Below are positions 8,562 to 20,000 of a stretch of DNA of 20,000 nt, in pieces (within the stretch, counting starts at the first letter, position 1; every line of letters starts with the position of its first letter). The translations under genes and the position numbers were made by a program. The notes below the pieces were generated by a model. It had not been told where the DNA came from. It made no database searches and saw nothing but the letters and a program-made list of their open reading frames with translations. The stretch is taken from contig JBEWZL010000152.1 in the NCBI GenBank assembly GCA_045837725.1, positions 543,008 through 563,007 on the forward strand, read 5' to 3'. Source of the DNA: Vermamoeba vermiformis (Eukaryota).

Positions 8562-8742
8562 ATCGAACACTGTAACGTGTAAGGGCAAAGCCTAGCTGGA
8601 TATATATACGAATATTAAAACTAATTAAATAAATAAAAGGGTTAAACACGATGACGTGTTATGTTTACTATCAGTGCGAGCCGTAATTGACCAAGGGTGA
8701 ATTAAGTGCGGAACTGTGCAAAGGAACGAACAGACGTACGAT

Positions 8743-9192
8743 TCACACTGACAGGTTCATTATTTTAGCCAAAAATGATTTGCCATTATCTGACTGTAGT
8801 ATTTCAGGGAACTGAAGCTCATTCAAGAAGAGTTCGAAGATGTAATGCACAATTGGCTCTACCTCTTGAGTTGGAAAGCACTTGGCCCAGGCAAATTTCG
8901 AGAAACAATCAATGATAGTGAGCATATGGCAGTCGCCTGTGATGGGGTCTGCATATTCGAAGCTAGTGAAGTCGATTTGAAGCCATTCCAAGATCCGATC
9001 AGCAGTTATTGGCTTAGTTGGTGGCTTTGGAATTCCAGTACATATTTTCATCATGGCACAATGTTCACACTTGTCAATGAATGTGTTGACATCGTTGGTA
9101 AGTCCAACCCAATAGTATTTGGCTTGTAGTTCGTAAATCATGGTGTTTAGGGCCAGGGCTGGCCACTTTTTTAAAATAAAATTGTACTTCAA
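8743..9192 (-). pseudogene. Truncated retroviral-type (rve) integrase fragment, Ginger/LTR/Polinton-like
   Basis: YYW...CEHC (end of the H2C2 zinc finger), then LQIDF, LTIIDCFSKFAW and PEILQSDNGKSF give the first two catalytic Asp. The ORF stops before the catalytic Glu, and no RT or gag is nearby. Confidence 0.85.
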
Positions 9193-9226
9193 ACATGGGT
9201 AACCTTGTTCTTGGTGCAGCAGGAGG

Positions 9227-9408
9227 GCGTCAGACCGTCTGACGGCCTAGGGATGGGGGGTGCGTCAGACGGTCTGACAGCCTCAGGTGCAAAGGCATTG
9301 CACATGCACCTGCACCCTCAGTCATGCACTGCAACAGCAAAGGGTGCAGACGGTCTGACGGCCTTGGACAGGGGGGGGGTGCGTCAGATGGTCTGATGGC
9401 CTAGGGAT
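9227..9408. repeat. Four copies of a GC-rich palindromic unit GCGTCAGACNGTCTGACGGCCTAGGGA, with G-runs
   Basis: Copies start near 9227, 9262, 9347 (partial) and 9381. The core GTCAGAC-N-GTCTGAC is a perfect inverted repeat in copies 1 and 2. Confidence 0.85.
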
Positions 9409-9410
9409 TA

Positions 9411-9441
9411 AACGATAACTATTGTAAAATCAAATAAATGC
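9411..9441 (+). repeat. Left terminal inverted repeat of the 9411-16163 element
   Basis: 26/31 ungapped identity to the reverse complement of 16133-16163. Confidence 0.7.
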
Positions 9442-9713
9442 GTTATAGATTATTTATAAATAATTAACTATTTAATCTATCGTAATATTGTGTTAAAATG
9501 ATAGTCACTCATGGATCTGACCGCCGAATCTAGGCAACGGCAGATCGCGAAAAAATTTATTCACTAAAAAGGGACCTGTTTTAAAGACTTACATCCTAAG
9601 CTTAGACTTAGCAGTTTCCAAAATATGACGCTTATTTGAGGTGTTTGTGCGGAGAATCGGCCCTGAACTTTTTGATTTTGGATCAAAGACCGACGTAGTC
9701 AACCACAAGAAAA

Positions 9714-10921
9714 ATGACTGACCGCATTGTTTATGATTATGTTAATGTTCCTTATGGGAAACCTATGGAAGAGACGATTGATTTACCTGCCCTGACGGAA
9801 GAGGATTTAAAAGAGTATCGGACCGTAACGACAAGGTAATAAATAATTTTAAATAATTTAATATTGGTAAAATATCAATCTTCCGTTGACCCAATGAAAT
9901 ATTATGATTTGCCAATTATTATTTTAATTCTTTAATTTTTTTTAGCACCGTTTTCAAGGACGATTACGGCAGTACTGCCATAGCTTTTTTCCAAGGGGTG
10001 CTCGAGAAAAAGACTGTCGATGACGCCAAAAAAGCTGCCCAGTCGTTATTAAAAAATTTAAAGCCATCTCAACCTGGGACTAGCGCGCATACAGGCGAAT
10101 GGCGAAAGAGCAGCGATTGGATATTCAAAACCAAAGACACAGTCAACGGTGAAGAGTACTACAAACGAGTTAACCGAAAGCCCTTTTGGCAGAATGCTGC
10201 CACAAAAAAGATCGTCAAAAAAGTTGATAACTACTTTTCAAGAACAGCGAGCGATTTATGCGAGGCATATAAAAGAATCAACGCAGAACGCATTTACGGA
10301 GGCTCGTACCTCATGTGCGTTATCAACACTGGGGTAGTTGGGCCTCATTACGACGAGAAAGACGAAATTGAAGGACTTTGCTGTGTCGTTCCAATGGGCG
10401 TATTTGATGGTGGCGACCTGGTGTTCCGACAACAGAAGCTTCGTTTTCAAGTACGAACAGGAGACATCATCTTCTTCCGCTCTCGCGAGTTGATGCACGA
10501 GAACTTACCTTGCACCGGAGAGCGATATTCGTTAGTCTTCACTACTGACCACGACTCGTTTACGGAATTTGGTCAACCTGCTCGTCAGTACATGCATTGG
10601 AAGCAACCAAAGTTAAACAGTCACGCCACTATTGAAGCACAAGGATTCAAACCCGAAGACGTACCCGAGTTACGCAAAACAAAGGTTGTTGTTATCGACA
10701 AGGTGTACACAAAACTAACGCGTGCAAATACACCACGAACAAAATTTGGTACGTTAAAGCTACCCTCACAAGATGGAAACCCAAGGGCACCAATTTCTCT
10801 TCGAAAAAATGCCAAGAAAAAAAAGAAGGCAACGAAGAGAAAGAGAAAAGAGATCGACGATGACGAGAGCCATTCTGAAGAAATATTGCTCGAAACAAAA
10901 AGACGGCGTATACAAAAATAA
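9714..10921 (+). CDS. TET/JBP-like 2-oxoglutarate/Fe(II) dioxygenase, ~365 aa, exons 9714-9835 and 9946-10921
   Basis: HxDxxD (PHYDEKD, His codon at 10346), GGDLVF, GDIIFFRSRELMHEN (distal His) and RYSLVF (2OG-binding Arg, compare TET RxSLVF). Lys/Arg-rich C-terminus resembles an NLS. The intron join is in phase. Confidence 0.8.
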
Positions 10922-10922
10922 T

Positions 10923-12263
10923 TTATTTGTTACGATAAAAGAAGAACGATAATAAATTGTTAATTTCCATTTGGTATTGATTACGAGTGTAGAGCTCTTT
11001 CATATAATAAAATAAATCCAAATTATTCGGCAAAGTTGACAAATTAGCTGATGCTAGTGGAAGCGAGGGCAGCAATTGGGGAGGTAATGAAGGTTGAGGC
11101 ATGCTGAGCGACTGGGCATTATTTTGACTTTGCAAGTCGGGGGTCTTAAGCGGTGGCAACAGGGCTGGCTCATTGTCTACTGACCTCGGCAGAGGTAACA
11201 ATGACTCCTCGTGACCCTCCTCTTGCTTTGTCTCAGGAGGAGTTTGAACCAACTTCTTTTTTTGCTTGTACCGCCTCTTGGTGAGCTTATATTCACCTGA
11301 TGCATCATCGCTTATAGAACGATCAACAACAACACGTGTCTTCTTTCTTCGGGTCATAGATTTTGACTTCGCAGCTGCCGTTGGACTTGCCGTCTTTTCA
11401 TTTTTTCTTGCTCCTTGCGATCTTGTCACCCGTCGTTCAGGGCCAGGAGTGCTTTTTTGCTCTACTTTCTTTGTTACTCGGGCCTTTTCTTGTTTTGAGG
11501 GTGGTACTACTTCCTCTTTAGAATGTGTTCGTTCTGGTGAAGACTACTAGGATTAAAAATTTGTTAATTAATTTGAGCTTACTTTATGTGTGACTTCTCC
11601 AGACAGAAATTGTTGCCAAATTGTCGTCAATTGTTCGTTTTGCTCGGTTGGGATTTGTGCCGGGTCTGAAAATTTTCTGAACTGCTTAACGTCAAGCAAA
11701 CACACCTCGTCAAACTTTTCTGTTGTTGCAACTATCCTTGGACTTAAACCCTTTCAAACCGTAGTTACAAATTATAAAAATAATTAAAATAATTGTTAAG
11801 TAATCGTTCTTACCCTTTCAATTGCTAAAATTATATATGTAGTGCTTCCTTCATTCAGTAGAATGCGATTGCCAGAACCAAGAGCAATTTTAGAGTTGGG
11901 AAGTAAAACAGAACCGTAGTAACGACCATTGATTGCACTTCCATTGTAGCGTGCAGTACTATGAAGTTCGTCTATCAAAGTTTAGCATGTGGCAACCCTA
12001 TTATTTGCTTGTACCGCTATCTTCATCCTTTTTCACGTTGGATTTCTCTTCATCTAGTTTTTTTATTGATAAATTTGGCTTGGTTTCCTCTTTCAAAGTA
12101 GTTAAATCTGCTTCTTATATAATATATTAATTCGTCTAGTAGGTAAAAACATGTAACTTTTTTTTACAAGCCAGATCTTACCGAGAGCAACCTGAGTACT
12201 TGTTGGTAAATCATCATTCTTAGTAGTTTCTTCATTACTTATTGAGGACTCATCAGCACTCAT
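10923..12263 (-). CDS. Five-exon hypothetical protein inside the element: small beta-rich domain plus basic, Pro-rich disordered tail
   Basis: ATG at 12263. Four GT-AG introns join in frame: MSADESS...VAL/DELIYYIRSRF...EDS/DELHSTARYNGSAINGRYYGSVLL...AIER/GLSPRIV...VTHK/SSPERTHS...YRNK-stop. Confidence 0.7.
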
Positions 12264-12475
12264 TGTTATGGTTGTGTGTATCCCAATCAAAACGTTACTA
12301 TCATAAGTAGTTTTACTTTGCCGACATGCATTTTCGAAGCTTCCTTTCCTTTTTTGGAAATTCAACGAGCAATTTTTTCCCTGCTTTACCAAGCCTTCGT
12401 TAGCATTAAAATCAGGTAGAACCACCACAACATACTTTGGAAAGTGATATACTTGCAATATAATATCAAAATAAT

Positions 12476-15400
12476 ATGGCAGATAATATACTAGGTAAGA
12501 TCTTAAGAGTTGCTGTTCGGATCTTGATTTCTAAATATTTTTTTACTTCGGCACATAACTTATCTTTTTTAACAAGATTAATTAAGTCTATATCTTACCT
12601 CTGTTGTGTAATTGGCTAGGCAATTATGCAATGTCGGATTAAATCTGAGCATTTTTACATTAGGTATCGAAATCGAAGGAGCGACAGTAAGTTTTAAGCA
12701 TTACGCACATGATTTTTAATTTATTTAGCCCATTCCAAGTGATTTACAAGGGTTTGTATGGGGATCCGGAGGTTGAACTATTTTGTTACAAGCATAATTC
12801 TAACCGGTGTACAGGAATTATCAACTTGTGTACCATGGAAACATTGTGCTTTATATTTAAACAAGCCCTAGTGGTATACAACATGGTAGTTGATTGTGAA
12901 TTTTTTCGACTATTGCGCAACACTCTGGATGCCGTTACATTTGATCAACTACACACCAGTAAATTACCAATAATTCAGTTTTTCCAAAAGCTGTGTCCTA
13001 CTTGGGTGCCAGGAAGATACGTTGGCGTAAATGAATTACTAAATCCTTTAATCAAATCGGAGCTTGTTTTCAAGACCAAATTTGAGCTTTGCTTCACCAA
13101 GTCAGTCAACTGTGATTGTGGCCAAGAAGTTCAAACTCTCTTTAGCAACTCTCTGGTGGTATCTGAAGATTACTTGAAACAAACAAATTCAGTTACTGCA
13201 TCAATAAGAAGATCAATGTTTCGAGAGCAAAACTTAGCAGGTGTCTGTTGCTTTTGTCACTCACCAAGGCACTTGAAAGGTAGATAAACTGTTTCAAAAC
13301 TAACTTTAACCAACCTTCTTTAGAATCAATAACAAAGCTTCCAGACTTGTTGGTTGTGGAGTTTGACACTGGACATCAAAACTATCTGTCTTCTACATTT
13401 GATATTGAACAAATTGTTCGCTTAGAAGATGGAGATTTTTCATTATTGAAGGCATTGAGAATTGATGGGAATCATACTACTGGATTCTTTCATAAAAATG
13501 GTCGAGTGCATGTTTATGATGGCTTAAAAAATGAGGGTAAAGCAATGGAGCTGCAGTACTCTAAAATGCACTATCTACCCTTGGAAGATTTTAAATATAT
13601 AACACACTTGATTTACATTCGTACTGCCAATTTTGCCAAAGGTAATAACATTAAATTCAAGCTTACTACTCTGTTGACATGCTAATGTACTTCTTAGACT
13701 TGGTTCTTTCAGATAGCAGTCAATTACTATTCTCACAAATCAATGCAGCAAAAAAACTCACTCCCCTTGGAGATAGTGGCTCAACCTCCAATGAATTGGC
13801 AACTGTCGAAGCTACCTCATTATTTAGTAGAATGAATCAAACAGTCAATAACACAAAGAGTAGCTCTTTGGCTAAACAATCCATGTTGAAAAAGAAGTTA
13901 ACCCAAGAACATGCCTCAAAAAGTATGTGCATCTACCGTTAACTATAGAGCATAATGCTAAATACTGCTTTAGGTTTACGTTTTAAGTGCTGCACAAATG
14001 AGTGCTGTTCTAAATTTGATCTATTCCAAGTCGTACATTATCGAAACCAATTACTACAAGACAACCATTTCAATTCGAACTTTATTAAATCCTACATTCG
14101 ACAACATGCCAACAACGAAACTATTTCTTGGCAATTTGGAGGGTTAGAAGTTTGTCAAGCAGCATGGTACACACTATATGGATTTTCGTCAGTTAAATTT
14201 TTTAAAGCAAAAAAAGAAGAATTACAAGGTAAACTCTGCATTACTTGAATTGTCATTAATATTGTTTAGGGTCTTATCAAGTGCTTCACGGGAACTATTT
14301 TCGAGAATATCCAAAGCCAAAGAGTATTAGTGTAAGCGCATGGCTTACAAACTACTGTGAAAAGTATGGAGATTATGTTCCTACAATCAATGAAATACAT
14401 TTAAGTGGCAATTTAAGGTAAGTAACGTTACAATTTGCTGTAAGCCTTTAATTGTATGTGCAAGTTTACAAGAGTGGTATGAAGAGTATCATGCTGAAGC
14501 ATCAGTCACTTTGGGTGACGTAGCAAGTTTTAAAACCTTTTGCTATGTTCGTAATTCCCAATTTTCGCATGTGAAGTTTCCAAAAGTTACTAGACTGGGC
14601 AAGTGCTCCATTTGTGTTTCAAATAGAAAATCAAGATTACTTTGTAGTAACCTTGAAGACATCATATCATTGAAATCTGAGTTAAAGGCACACTTTAGCG
14701 TTACTGCCGGAGAAAAACAACAGTACCATGGCAGAAAGATAAAAGCCAGGCAATATCCAACTGCAATTTTGTCATTTATTAGTGATAAAACAAAAGATGT
14801 AGAAATTCCAACTACCAACCCTCTACCAAAATCATGGACAAGAGTAAAAAGACATCCAGTTGGAATTATGGGCATTTTAAATCATTCGTTAGGAACCAAA
14901 GAATTTGTTTTGTTTTCCCCAGAACAGTGGACCTTGGACTCAAACTTTTTTCTAACAATTTTACATAACTCGATTATGAACTCTCTAAAAGCTTACAAGG
15001 CAGAAAGGCCCAGAGTTTTATATATACAAACAGATAACTGCAGTGCAGAGTCAAAAAACCAGTATTTATTAGCATATTTGGCTCTACTAGTCGAGTACAA
15101 AATTTTCGATGAGATTTACTTCCACACTCTAATTCCTGGTCATACTCATGAAGATATAGACCAACTATTCAGCGTTCTGCACCAAAAATTAGAAACTGCT
15201 ACTATTGAAACAATATCACAACTAATCAACTTCATGGAAACAAAAGTTTTCTCAAGTCGTCCAATTGTAACATGGATTCGAGCTGTGTATGATTGGAAAC
15301 AATGGATGTCTGGTTTTTGTAACAAAATATCTGGTCACAAATCACCACATGCTTTCTTAATTAAGAATGGTTCTGACTCTAAGGTGCACCTATATTATAA

Positions 15401-16128
15401 AAAGTACTCTCAAGATATGGAATGGTTGGGAGACCATAATCAAAATGTCATTTTCAATTCAAAACCTGCAGCATGGCCAAATATCCTTCATCAAAACCAG
15501 TTTGATCATGAAGCAATTAAAAAGATGGTAGATCAATGCAGGTCACACATCTCGGAAACGGTAAGTTTAAAACTTTGAAAAGCAATTAACAACCTTTAGA
15601 GTGTTCAATGGTGGCAACATATTGATAAATCAGTTAAAGTCCTACCTTGTTTGTCAATTACACCCAATCCATTTGCTGATTTTCAAATATCTTCTGTTGT
15701 TCAACATGAATTCAAAGTTGTTTCAACACAAACACCAGTTATAAAAGTAACAAAACCTAGGCAAAAAAGAAAGCCAGAAGGTTTGTACTGTTTATTATAT
15801 AGAACGGTTCTAATCATTTCTAGATTGGCCTACAGGAGCTGTGAAAAAGCTTCGTTCTGCAAAAGTAAAGGATGATTTGTTGGATTTATTGGCAAGCCTT
15901 AGTAAATCCTTTGAAGCTAGTCTGCATTATCCTATTCCAACTCTACAACAATCTCTTCGCAACTTACTAGGGTTTGGATCTCCATTTATAACCAACATTT
16001 CAATGAACAAAGAGTTTGAAGAAGAAATTGGATCACTACGGTCAAGAATTGAAGCACTACAGTATTTACATACACTGTTAGAAGATTATGACAGCATTGT
16101 AAAAGATTTGAAGCTCAAAAAAAAGTAA
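12476..16128 (+). CDS. ~1000-aa, ~11-exon fusion of an N-terminal USP-like cysteine protease and a Sola1/DUF7869-like DDE transposase
   Basis: Protease part: GFVW..IINLC (Cys codon at 12829), CDCG and CCFC zinc pairs, LPDLLVVEF, GNH (13473), VYDG (13518). Transposase part: CCTNECC, HGN...W...GDYVP...HL, CSIC, SFISD, LYIQTDNC..ESKN, LIPGHTHEDIDQLFS, YDWKQW. All joins are in phase with no internal stop. The first three small exons are less certain. Confidence 0.8.
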
Positions 16129-16132
16129 ATTT

Positions 16133-16163
16133 GCCTTTATTTGGTTTTACATTAGTTGCCGTT
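16133..16163 (-). repeat. Right terminal inverted repeat of the 9411-16163 element
   Basis: Starts 4 bp after the transposase stop (16128) and lies in the 68-bp gap before the amidohydrolase stop. 26/31 identity to the left end. Confidence 0.7.
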
Positions 16164-16196
16164 AATGTTCAACGACTTTCGGTTCAAAGAGTAAAT

Positions 16197-17968: not shown

Positions 17969-18020
17969 GAGTGAGTCTCCGATTTTGTCCCAAACCCCCA
18001 ATTTTGTCCCAAACGATTTT
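17969..18020 (+). repeat. Left TIR of the pogo element, with two internal ATTTTGTCCCAA direct repeats
   Basis: GAGTGAGTCTCCGATTTTGTCCCAAACCCCCAATTTTGTCCCAAACGATTTT. Confidence 0.92.
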
Positions 18021-18119
18021 GGACTAAAATTTAACAATAATTTATTTTAATACTTATTTAATGGAGTGATTTCAATACGAATAGATAAATAATAAGTGAA
18101 TACTTGAATTACAGTTGAT

Positions 18120-19832
18120 TTAATCGTGCAATTCGCCTTCATCACTGGCCAGATCGGATCTTTCTTCGCTCAGATCAGATCCGCATTCAGCAGCATGCTC
18201 ATCATGAATATCTCGTTTTTGACACTTCTTGCATACTTGATAGCTATTACATGAGGTGCAGACCCAAAATTTGTGCTTCTTGGTATATATACGACGGCAA
18301 GGTGAGCACGTCCTACTAATCACATCACTCTGTTTGTCAAGTTTGCGTCGCTTGACGAGCTCTTGTCGCTCTTCTTTCTCCTCTTCTCTCTTTCTCTTCT
18401 TGTCCTCTCTTTCTTTCTTCGCAAGTTCTTTAGCCTCCTTCTCTTTCAGTGCTTTTTCCTCCTTCTCACGGGCATAGATCACCAACTGCTGGCCAGTCAC
18501 CAATTTATTCCGCTCATTGGCACGTACTCGCTTGATAGGAGTCTTGGTTTGATTAGGTATCAAGGCCTCCTTAAGTATCAGTGCCATAGCTTTAACTTCT
18601 TCATCTTCACTGGTGTGCAGTTGAGGTTTTGTGTCGAACATGTACATGTTCTGAAATTTCTTGCTGATAAGTGCACTATCGAATGGCCAAATGCCTGTAT
18701 GTCGAAATCCTGCCTTAATGACCTCTTTATCAAATATATTGGACTTCTCCTCCGTGATAATGTCTTCAATAACAGAGTGCAGGGTCTCTCCAGTGAGGAG
18801 CCGTCGCATTCTTTCAAGGTCTCTCTTGACACGCATCTTGCGTTTGAACGAGCCAAAAATCACGTCGTCAAGAGGTTGAAGCAAATGAGTTGTATGTGCT
18901 GGTAGGTACAGGGGCTGTATATCAGAATCTAATAGCAAGTTGATGCTGGTCAACTCCAGGTGGGTGGAGTGGCGGTCAAGAAGTAAAAGAGCTGGTTGTC
19001 CTTGCTTGAACGCTGAAAGTCGCTCCACGAGTCGCGCTATTATTTGCTTCCACAACTCATTTGTAATAAAGCCATTAGCTGTTGTGGCATAATAAGTTGG
19101 TATAGTGCTGCGAGTATATCTCAGCTCTGTAGTGACGGGAATCGAATTCTTCTTTTCGTTGCCATTTTGTGACATGTCCTTGTAGATGAGCACTATCATC
19201 CAAACACGACCAGATGCTGCAACGAATGGAAGTATAGTGCGTAGATGACTCTTGGGAGTACTCAATCTACCCTGCTTTTTCGAATTTGCACTCGTTAGAA
19301 TCTTCGAACTTTCTCCGTCAGTAAATTTACAGGGAGATTCGTCAGCGTTGATGATGAAGTCGTCCGTGTAACTTTTCTCTTCTAGTAGCCTCTTGTATTC
19401 TTTCACAAATGACTCAATAATATCAATAGTGACAGAATTGACACGTCCCATGTCGAGGTCTTTACCAAACGCGTGAGAGATGTGATCTGAATTGCGGATC
19501 AGAAAATTGCTAAACCAGTGATCGCCTCGCCAGTCTTCAGGGAGCTCAAATATCTTACGTACAAAACTAATGAATACACTTCTCGACAGAGCTATTCCGC
19601 TTGCTGAAAAAGCTAAAATGATGCTGCATAGTCTTTTTTCTTGCTGATCGGTGAGCATCTGATTTCCATGTTTCTTCTCTTTATTCTTTTGAGCCCGCTG
19701 GTAGGCTTTGCGAAGTGTTTCGAATTTATTGGGACTATTCCGCGTCAAATCGCGAATAATTTCGCTAATTGTCTCGCCGTTTTCTGAAATCCGTTGATTG
19801 ATCTCATGAATTTCGTTTTCATACTTCGCCAT
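18120..19832 (-). CDS. pogo-family DD35D transposase, 570 aa: CENP-B-type HTH, DDE_1 domain, coiled coil, C-terminal Cys-rich zinc finger
   Basis: LTDQQEKRL...WFSNFLIRN (HTH), INADES, LLLDRHSTH, LPAHTTHLLQPLD with 35 residues between the second and third Asp, and CSPC..CTSC..CKKC at the C-terminus. Confidence 0.93.
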   Translation of the reverse strand: MAKYENEIHEINQRISENGETISEIIRDLTRNSPNKFETLRKAYQRAQKNKEKKHGNQMLTDQQEKRLCSIILAFSASGIALSRSVFISFVRKIFELPEDWRGDHWFSNFLIRNSDHISHAFGKDLDMGRVNSVTIDIIESFVKEYKRLLEEKSYTDDFIINADESPCKFTDGESSKILTSANSKKQGRLSTPKSHLRTILPFVAASGRVWMIVLIYKDMSQNGNEKKNSIPVTTELRYTRSTIPTYYATTANGFITNELWKQIIARLVERLSAFKQGQPALLLLDRHSTHLELTSINLLLDSDIQPLYLPAHTTHLLQPLDDVIFGSFKRKMRVKRDLERMRRLLTGETLHSVIEDIITEEKSNIFDKEVIKAGFRHTGIWPFDSALISKKFQNMYMFDTKPQLHTSEDEEVKAMALILKEALIPNQTKTPIKRVRANERNKLVTGQQLVIYAREKEEKALKEKEAKELAKKEREDKKRKREEEKEERQELVKRRKLDKQSDVISRTCSPCRRIYTKKHKFWVCTSCNSYQVCKKCQKRDIHDEHAAECGSDLSEERSDLASDEGELHD

Positions 19833-19948
19833 TACAGGTCAGAAAAATTATAAATAAAATCAATACTATTGAACAACAAGCTGTCGTGTTCGTGTGCGAA
19901 GCAACTTATTGAATGCCGTTGGTAAAATAATTTGCGAAATTACGCAAA

Positions 19949-20000
19949 AAAATCGGTTGGGACAAAATCAGGGGTTTGGGACAAAATCGGCGACTCACTC
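19949..20000 (-). repeat. Right TIR of the pogo element
   Basis: Reverse complement reads GAGTGAGTCGCCGATTTTGTCCCAAACCCCTGATTTTGTCCCAACCGATTTT, 48/52 identical to the left TIR. Confidence 0.92.

Follow-up and report, generated by a model that had tools for sequence, protein, structure and literature searches.

Is the TET/JBP-like dioxygenase gene in this stretch of DNA a true member of its family, why does it lie where it does, and which base would its product oxidise? We examined these questions in the window, by which we mean the whole 20,000-nucleotide stretch that was analysed, and in the remainder of the genome, whose host looks amoebozoan. The gene is near certainly cargo of a DNA transposon bounded by terminal inverted repeats (TIRs) and encoding a DUF7869 transposase (Table 1). 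We consider it probable, from sequence and structural models, that this Sola-like element carries an anti-silencing oxidase of 5-methylcytosine (5mC), with a product that possibly stops at 5hmC.

The TET/JBP gene and its family

The gene previously annotated at 9714-10921 is real, with an intact HxD...H triad, an RxS arginine and a basic tail, but it is not a single open reading frame. Read unspliced from the ATG at 9714, the frame meets stops at codons 42-43; predicted splicing of a short intron, which none of the reads and contigs examined crossed, yields a protein of 365 amino acids with zero internal stops. All the motifs quoted in the first-pass annotation (HxD...H, RxSLVF, TVFKDDYG..IAFFQGVL, HTGEW and the basic tail) were present, and the tail also contains KRRR at 10898-10909. 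That annotation had missed the location of the gene inside a DNA transposon. Residue numbers are counted from the exon-2 frame start at 9947, and 41 must be added for the full-length protein.

Table 1. Coordinates of the TET/JBP gene, its key residues and the transposon that carries it, in window positions.
Feature	Positions	Strand	Remarks
DNA transposon with TET/JBP gene, whole, 6,753 bp	9411..16163	+	Bounded by inverted repeats; second copy at C301
Left terminal inverted repeat	9411..9441	+	84% complementary to 16133-16163 over 31 nt; C301 similarity starts exactly at 9411
TET/JBP exon 1	9714..9835	+	40 codons + 2 nt, predicted from sequence
TET/JBP intron, predicted, 110 nt, GT..AG	9836..9945	+	In-frame stops if unspliced; spliced frame open
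TET/JBP exon 2	9946..10921	+	Dioxygenase domain about 9947-10570, then C-terminal tail
Val125	10319..10321	+	NgTET1 A212 / TET2 T1372 pocket position; two residues before conserved Asn, profile alignment to NgTET1
H134 (10346) and D136 (10352), HxD iron ligands, with D139	10346..10363	+	D139 is the NgTET1 D234 counterpart
Distal His184 (10496), 2OG-binding Arg193 (10523), Val197, Thr199 (10541), Asp201	10496..10549	+	
Basic tail KKKKKATKRKRK, putatively NLS-like	10814..10849	+	C-termini of close relatives also basic
Second cargo gene, spliced, convergent with TET gene	10923..12458	-	CT..AC joints 11543-11583, 11749-11813, 12113-12182 in run X4 contigs
Probable multi-exon transposase gene	12709..16128	+	Short predicted GT..AG introns join ORF pieces; 12709-13690 part putative
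Right terminal inverted repeat	16133..16163	-	DNA-run contig ends at 16164
Right target-site duplication AATG	16164..16167	+	Left AATG present in C301 copy; window left flank is ATTA

Searched alone, the window protein matched Pfam Tet_JBP at E 0.032, under the cut-off, and gave nothing significant as a single sequence against the PDB; matches there came from the profile. Among representatives clustered at 50% identity, 529 were related to it at E<=0.001. In an alignment of 113 sequences (the query and 112 of 150 relatives among the matches listed), H184 is invariant and H134, D136, D139, R193 and S195 are each kept in at least 90%; given these relatives and conserved positions, the motifs are not chance occurrences. 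Tet_JBP (PF12851) was matched at E<=0.01 by 104 of the 113 aligned members. The profile recovered NgTET1 (4.4e-16) and CcTet (2.4e-12) from the PDB, with prolyl hydroxylases at 0.003 or worse.

The predicted structure of the TET domain (exon 2; pLDDT 94.8) gave the same placement. Modelled in this way, the fold was closest to NgTET1 (Z 21.2, rmsd 2.2, 193 residues aligned), CcTet (Z 19.1, rmsd 2.2, 197 aligned) and TET2 (Z 16.7, rmsd 3.1, 203 aligned), with FTO next at Z 13.6, AlkB and prolyl hydroxylases at 13.6 or below, and CMD1 at 12.0. In Foldseek, the best 14 ranks among the matches listed were held by NgTET1, CcTet and CMD1, with the families in the same order as in the Z ranking. ESM Atlas returned Tet_JBP clusters only, and in a cluster look-up covering 10 relatives Rhizophagus was the sole organism named. 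Membership of the TET/JBP family, as proposed earlier, is near certain on these profiles and models, and non-nucleic-acid 2-oxoglutarate (2OG) oxygenases did not supply the best profile or structure matches. It is scarcely credible that the gene encodes instead a 2OG oxygenase for proteins or small molecules (prolyl hydroxylase, PKHD type) or an AlkB-type demethylase: 22 of the 113 aligned members also match 2OG-FeII_Oxy_3, but TETs came first by wide margins (E 4e-16 versus 0.003; Z 21.2/19.1/16.7 versus <=13.6).

The base pocket and the predicted reaction

Pocket positions were read off the profile alignment with NgTET1, and the roles of the residues were taken from PMC4678852. NgTET1, a compact single domain like the window protein, was its best profile and fold match at about 20% identity. 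The window protein keeps H134, D136, H184 and R193, as well as S195 of RxS, V197 (V293 in NgTET1) and D139 (D234), the last of these occupying the Asp/Asn position five residues after the first His (D234/N1387). It differs in V125 for A212, T199 for F295, D201 for H297 and H48 for Y141. T199 and D201 thus stand where 5mC-oxidising TETs have an aromatic stacking residue (F295/Y1902) and a histidine (H297/H1904). Among 149 outside relatives, D139 is kept in 140, Thr occurs at the F295 position in 31 and Asp at the H297 position in 38.

The earlier description of the enzyme as catalytically complete holds for the metal and 2OG-C5 ligands, but a second arginine (NgTET1 R224/TET2 R1261), called strictly conserved in known 5mC dioxygenases (PMC8256090), has no clear counterpart. 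No Arg lies between N127 and H134, and in the upstream loop the window protein has Ser41 where 47% of relatives have Arg. The conserved R53 or R115 might act as a substitute. Across the family, loss of the loop Arg was not significantly associated with a non-aromatic residue at 199 (p 0.27). One reading of these losses, which we regard as very unlikely, is a catalytically weak or dead TET fold that binds and shields methylated DNA; the stacking aromatic and a clear R224 counterpart are gone, but the iron triad and 2OG arginine are invariant in a close clade of 19 sequences, and dN/dS values of 0.04-0.16 in five of five close TET pairs reveal purifying selection.

The Thr that follows RxSLVF, taken earlier as a hint of an atypical substrate or product, does occupy the TET2 Y1902/NgTET1 F295 position, but is on its own a weak sign of an atypical substrate, being shared by the relatives counted above and co-varying with a larger side chain where NgTET1 has A212 and TET2 has T1372. 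Of 53 sequences with V, I or L at 125, 42 have a non-aromatic residue at 199, compared with 6 of the other 86 (p 6e-19, a value that counts related sequences and not independent events). In a tree from which 50 of 181 rows with fewer than 120 aligned columns were dropped (16 of these 50 being fragments from this genome), the window protein falls in a clade (support 0.975) with the V/T swap fixed, beside an A/F/H clade, and similar V/T swaps occur on other branches. The co-variation of Val and Thr, together with the recurrence of the swap on several branches, favours a compensating swap rather than a change of substrate.

With three pocket residues changed and R224 lacking a clear counterpart, an altered product (5hmC-rich) or an altered substrate is possible. 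In NgTET1, D234 recognises cytosine N4 and determines the preference for cytosine, Asn at this position is thymine-favouring, and A212V limits the product to 5hmC (PMC4678852); in TET2, higher oxidation is controlled by the corresponding pair T1372/Y1902 (PMC12830177). The A212V measurements were made on an enzyme that retains F295, and the smaller Thr may cancel the effect here.

The same residues bear on a transposon-borne TET of atypical chemistry, with a pocket that takes thymine or 6mA or that forms a CMD1-like 5mC adduct, which we think unlikely. It would account for the three changed pocket residues and for the missing Arg at both the R224 position and the upstream loop. Thymine N3-H could donate a hydrogen bond to the Asp that replaces H297, CMD1 too is carried by a transposon (bioRxiv 2022.06.16.496473), and the host has MT-A70 genes, one of them AMT1-like by reading. 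Several features argue against it. D139 is kept and is neither Asn nor Gly, the RxS arginine is intact, the V/T pairing on several branches is that expected of a compensating swap, CMD1 ranks below NgTET1, CcTet and TET2 as a fold match, and Pfam searches recognised no glycosyltransferase in the element. CMD1 differs further in using vitamin C and making 5gmC. The 6mA activity of CcTET of Coprinopsis, a transposon-associated enzyme of 5mC and 6mA and our second-best fold match, is linked to its G331/D337 pair (Kojima 2025, PMC12730594); this feature (Gly/Ser at 331, Asp at 337) is absent from the window protein, which has Asp139 and Leu144 at these positions.

The carrier transposon and other TET loci

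A second copy of the element, at G000:C301:76369-83121, differs from the window copy at 22 of its 6,753 bases and has AATG on either side. TIRs and a transposase ORF are present in the window copy; its target duplication lacks the left repeat and is complete in C301 only. A scan for the termini matched either end pattern at two places only, the window and C301. The two copies share their right flank, where the host gene next to the element differs by 3.5%. On the left, the window element adjoins a truncated repeat element, whereas a contig of DNA run X1 that enters at 9411 has the C301-type flank; the left junction at 9410/9411 is therefore a rearrangement or an assembly join.

We identified a DUF7869 core in 14511-15578 (Pfam 1.9e-52), with the motifs CxxC, D92, D175 and GHTxxxxD (D217). 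The transposase model was too poor for a fold search (pLDDT 43), and the PDB gave no sequence match. ORFs in 12709-13690 are probably the N-terminal exons of this transposase. Cys- and His-box-like motifs seen there by eye were suggestive of a ubiquitin-specific peptidase, a reading that we rejected as Pfam and PDB searches lent it no support. The minus-strand cargo gene had no Pfam match at E<0.01.

Target duplications of 4 bp were found at C301 (AATG), C56 (ATCC), C292 (GTTA) and L102 (TCAC), the ends being unmatched at C121; L102 is a TET-less DUF7869 element whose TIR has a TATTGTAAAA core in common with the left TIR of the window. Sola transposons are defined by four-base duplications and DDD transposases (PMC10741241), and the present elements agree with them in DDD-type layout, short TIRs, 4-bp duplication and a size within 2-9 kb (PMC10741241, PMC3627910). 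The motif order CxxC, D, D, H..D resembles, by eye only, that of Sola2 proteins in the supplement of PMC3627910. We call the element Sola-like and not Sola, on the basis of duplication length and of a motif order compared by eye. In dictyostelids, Sola2 elements capture cargo (Fanzor; PMC10741241, PMC3627910).

Elsewhere in the genome we found 27 TET-related matches, which collapse to 24 loci. A second TIR family, represented by C56, C121 and C153 (97% identical, with different flanks) and by C292, carries a TET gene upstream of a DUF7869 transposase that is only about 25% identical to that of the window. This sister family has been mobile: C292 has a GTTA duplication, and its empty site is present in the flank of C56. 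The filled and empty pair (G000:C292:50495-55780 and C56:337440) places two families of TET and DUF7869 elements in the same repeated target sequence. The host flanks of C56, C121, C153 and C292 have a G+C of 0.47-0.54 compared with 0.36-0.42 around the window, which may reflect regional variation or a mixed source.

At C215, a TET gene and a piggyBac-like transposase lie between inverted repeat arrays. TET genes also stand beside RAG1-like ORFs at C140, C77 and C294 (weak Pfam matches, 2e-7 to 3e-3); no TIRs were found around these three loci, the TET gene of C77 does not lie in a multi-copy stretch, and the links are of adjacency only, without a control for chance. In total, 10 of the 24 loci are enclosed by TIRs or have a transposase-like ORF within about 3 kb, one of them doubtfully, and an eleventh (C73) is 6.5 kb from a piggyBac-like ORF that falls outside the module it has in common with C137 and C289. 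That 3.3-kb TET module is about 90% identical between the three, has a TA-rich junction at its end, and contains no recognised transposase. The remaining loci, about half of the 24 and often at contig ends, had no recognised transposase in a scan of 64 chosen ORFs.

In the tree, the window TET groups with the proteins of C140 and C209 (support 0.979) and not with other DUF7869-borne TETs, which suggests that the TET gene has been exchanged between element types. The gene was absent from 16 of 16 other DUF7869 stretches examined, indicating that it is dispensable for this transposase family. Scans of metagenome and viral contigs for related loci gave no confirmed relative, and the transposon link is thus one shown in this genome only.

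TET-carrying DNA transposons have been described in fungi, where an anti-silencing role was proposed and is untested (Kojima 2025, PMC12730594). The fungal elements are similar to those here in having the TET/JBP gene within TIRs and target duplications, in forming several families per genome and in having the gene common to several superfamilies; they differ from the present DUF7869/Sola-like transposase and from a host that has DNMT3 and looks amoebozoan. Non-fungal cases of expressed TET/JBP cargo come from Chlamydomonas, in which DNA-1_cRei carries CMD1 and Helitrons carry TET genes; DNA-1_cRei has 8-bp duplications and no recognisable transposase (bioRxiv 2022.06.16.496473). We found no report of a TET-carrying Sola-like element or of an amoebozoan case in the literature available; Repbase and the papers of Iyer et al. 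(2009, 2013, 2014) may hold some. Within that scope, these elements add another kind of transposon, and probably another eukaryotic supergroup, to the known range of the TET-cargo strategy.

Host methylation, CpG footprint and possible benefit to the element

We identified in the host a DNMT1 (1.4e-72), a DNMT3-like enzyme (3.8e-18), a chromodomain-linked C5 DNA methyltransferase that is chromomethylase-like by reading (L084; G000:C11:561000-563600) and an enzyme labelled DNMT2-like by reading. A capping-protein exon on contig C292 matched 4AKR, the Dictyostelium protein, at 223 bits (171 for the entry after it), and this single marker, which lies on a different contig from the window, makes an amoebozoan host likely. 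Methylation by DNMT1/DNMT3 is a mark of young transposons in Acanthamoeba (PMC12344493). Observed/expected CpG ratios were 0.92-1.34 in 20 host bins of the same contig, and in the window 0.43 for the transposase and 1.29 for the TET exon. The three TET-linked DUF7869 transposases had 0.42-0.48; in the second family the transposase likewise had 0.42-0.48 and the TET gene 1.14-1.18, and all 10 TET ORFs tested were host-like (1.00-1.41). Synonymous C before G was found at 35 of 63 sites in the TET exon and 6 of 37 in the transposase (p 1e-4). Depletion is not universal among transposases, the RAG1-like ORFs having 0.81-1.06 and the pogo ORF 0.93.

As read from base composition, these ratios show past methylation of the elements, from which the TET gene escaped. 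The host-like CpG of the TET gene could equally come from recent capture out of unmethylated DNA, and the pattern therefore does not show the TET protein to be the cause of the escape. TET-linked DUF7869 transposases were no less CpG-depleted than TET-less ones (0.42-0.48 versus 0.09-0.82; p 0.66, n=3 versus 12, with 4 of 16 near-identical copies dropped), so that there is no sign of the element lastingly protecting its own transposase.

Expression of the element was examined in run X4, which we guessed to be RNA and which bears another organism label, at a depth of about 3. Contigs from this run match the TET exon in three places, with 0-3 differences, and show splicing of the minus-strand cargo gene and of the host neighbour gene; none covers 12443-16174. 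This suggests that the cargo is expressed without a detectable transposase transcript; the contigs give neither strand nor level. RNA runs X12 and X14 had no reads on the element, and their host-neighbour reads were only 90-95% alike, so that the strain may lack it.

The explanation that we favour would operate as follows. A cut-and-paste Sola-like transposon would have as its cargo a working TET/JBP dioxygenase dependent on Fe(II) and 2-oxoglutarate, in a host whose DNMT1/DNMT3 would methylate CpG in transposons. The cargo would be transcribed and its product would enter the nucleus by means of the basic tail, flip 5-methylcytosine into its pocket, read cytosine N4 through Asp139 and oxidise the methyl group mainly to 5hmC, the Val at the A212 position being the presumed reason for this limit. 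Maintenance of silencing would be weakened on the element or on transposons generally, and TET-carrying elements would be favoured, with the gene passing between transposon families. Standing against this account are the changed or missing counterparts of the F295 stacking residue, H297 and R224, and in Naegleria genomic 5hmC was not detected despite NgTET1 (PMC12344493).

An ordinary 5mC oxidase without protection in cis, acting genome-wide or serving the host and merely carried along by transposons, seems to us improbable, and more so than an atypical chemistry. It would fit the lack of CpG relief in the linked transposases, the roughly half of the 24 loci with no recognised transposase in the flanks examined, and the X4 contigs that cover the TET gene and not the transposase. 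Benefit to the elements is nevertheless the easier account of a TET gene found repeatedly inside the TIRs of two distantly related DUF7869 families, as well as beside other transposases, and under purifying selection between copies at separate loci. A bolder possibility, which we rate about as unlikely as atypical chemistry in the window protein, is that the Val/Thr/Asp clade would be a transposon-spread TET lineage with a new chemistry, in which stable 5hmC, 5hmU or a CMD1-like adduct would keep its own gene unmethylated, and which would have moved between Sola-like, RAG1/Transib-like and piggyBac-like elements within an amoebozoan genome.

This genome offers a cleaner test of TET anti-silencing: the host has both DNMT1 and DNMT3, members of one transposase family occur side by side with and without a TET gene, there are young copies, and one insertion site is present in filled and empty form. 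The enzyme is small (a domain of about 210 residues) and is a natural A212V/F295T variant; were it to stop at 5hmC or to make a different base, it would be of use as a reagent and would demonstrate how the pocket tolerates loss of the stacking residue.

The truncated repeated element at 8575-9410 starts with TGT and ends exactly at the left TIR of the TET element; it contains an integrase fragment on the minus strand (8743-9192; rve and an H2C2 finger) and palindromic tandem repeats (9222-9408), is Ginger-like by reading, and recurs in pieces on more than 10 contigs. At 17969-20000 the window holds a pogo/Tc1-type element with 52-nt TIRs and an intact DDE_1 transposase of 570 amino acids that is not CpG-depleted. 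In C301 an additional pair of inverted repeats, 91 nt each, surrounds the pogo/Tc1-type element, after which comes another transposon-like sequence, and an ORF for a His-Me finger endonuclease (4.9e-9; L038:6777-7325 of G000:C301) lies about 2.5 kb to the left of the C301 copy.
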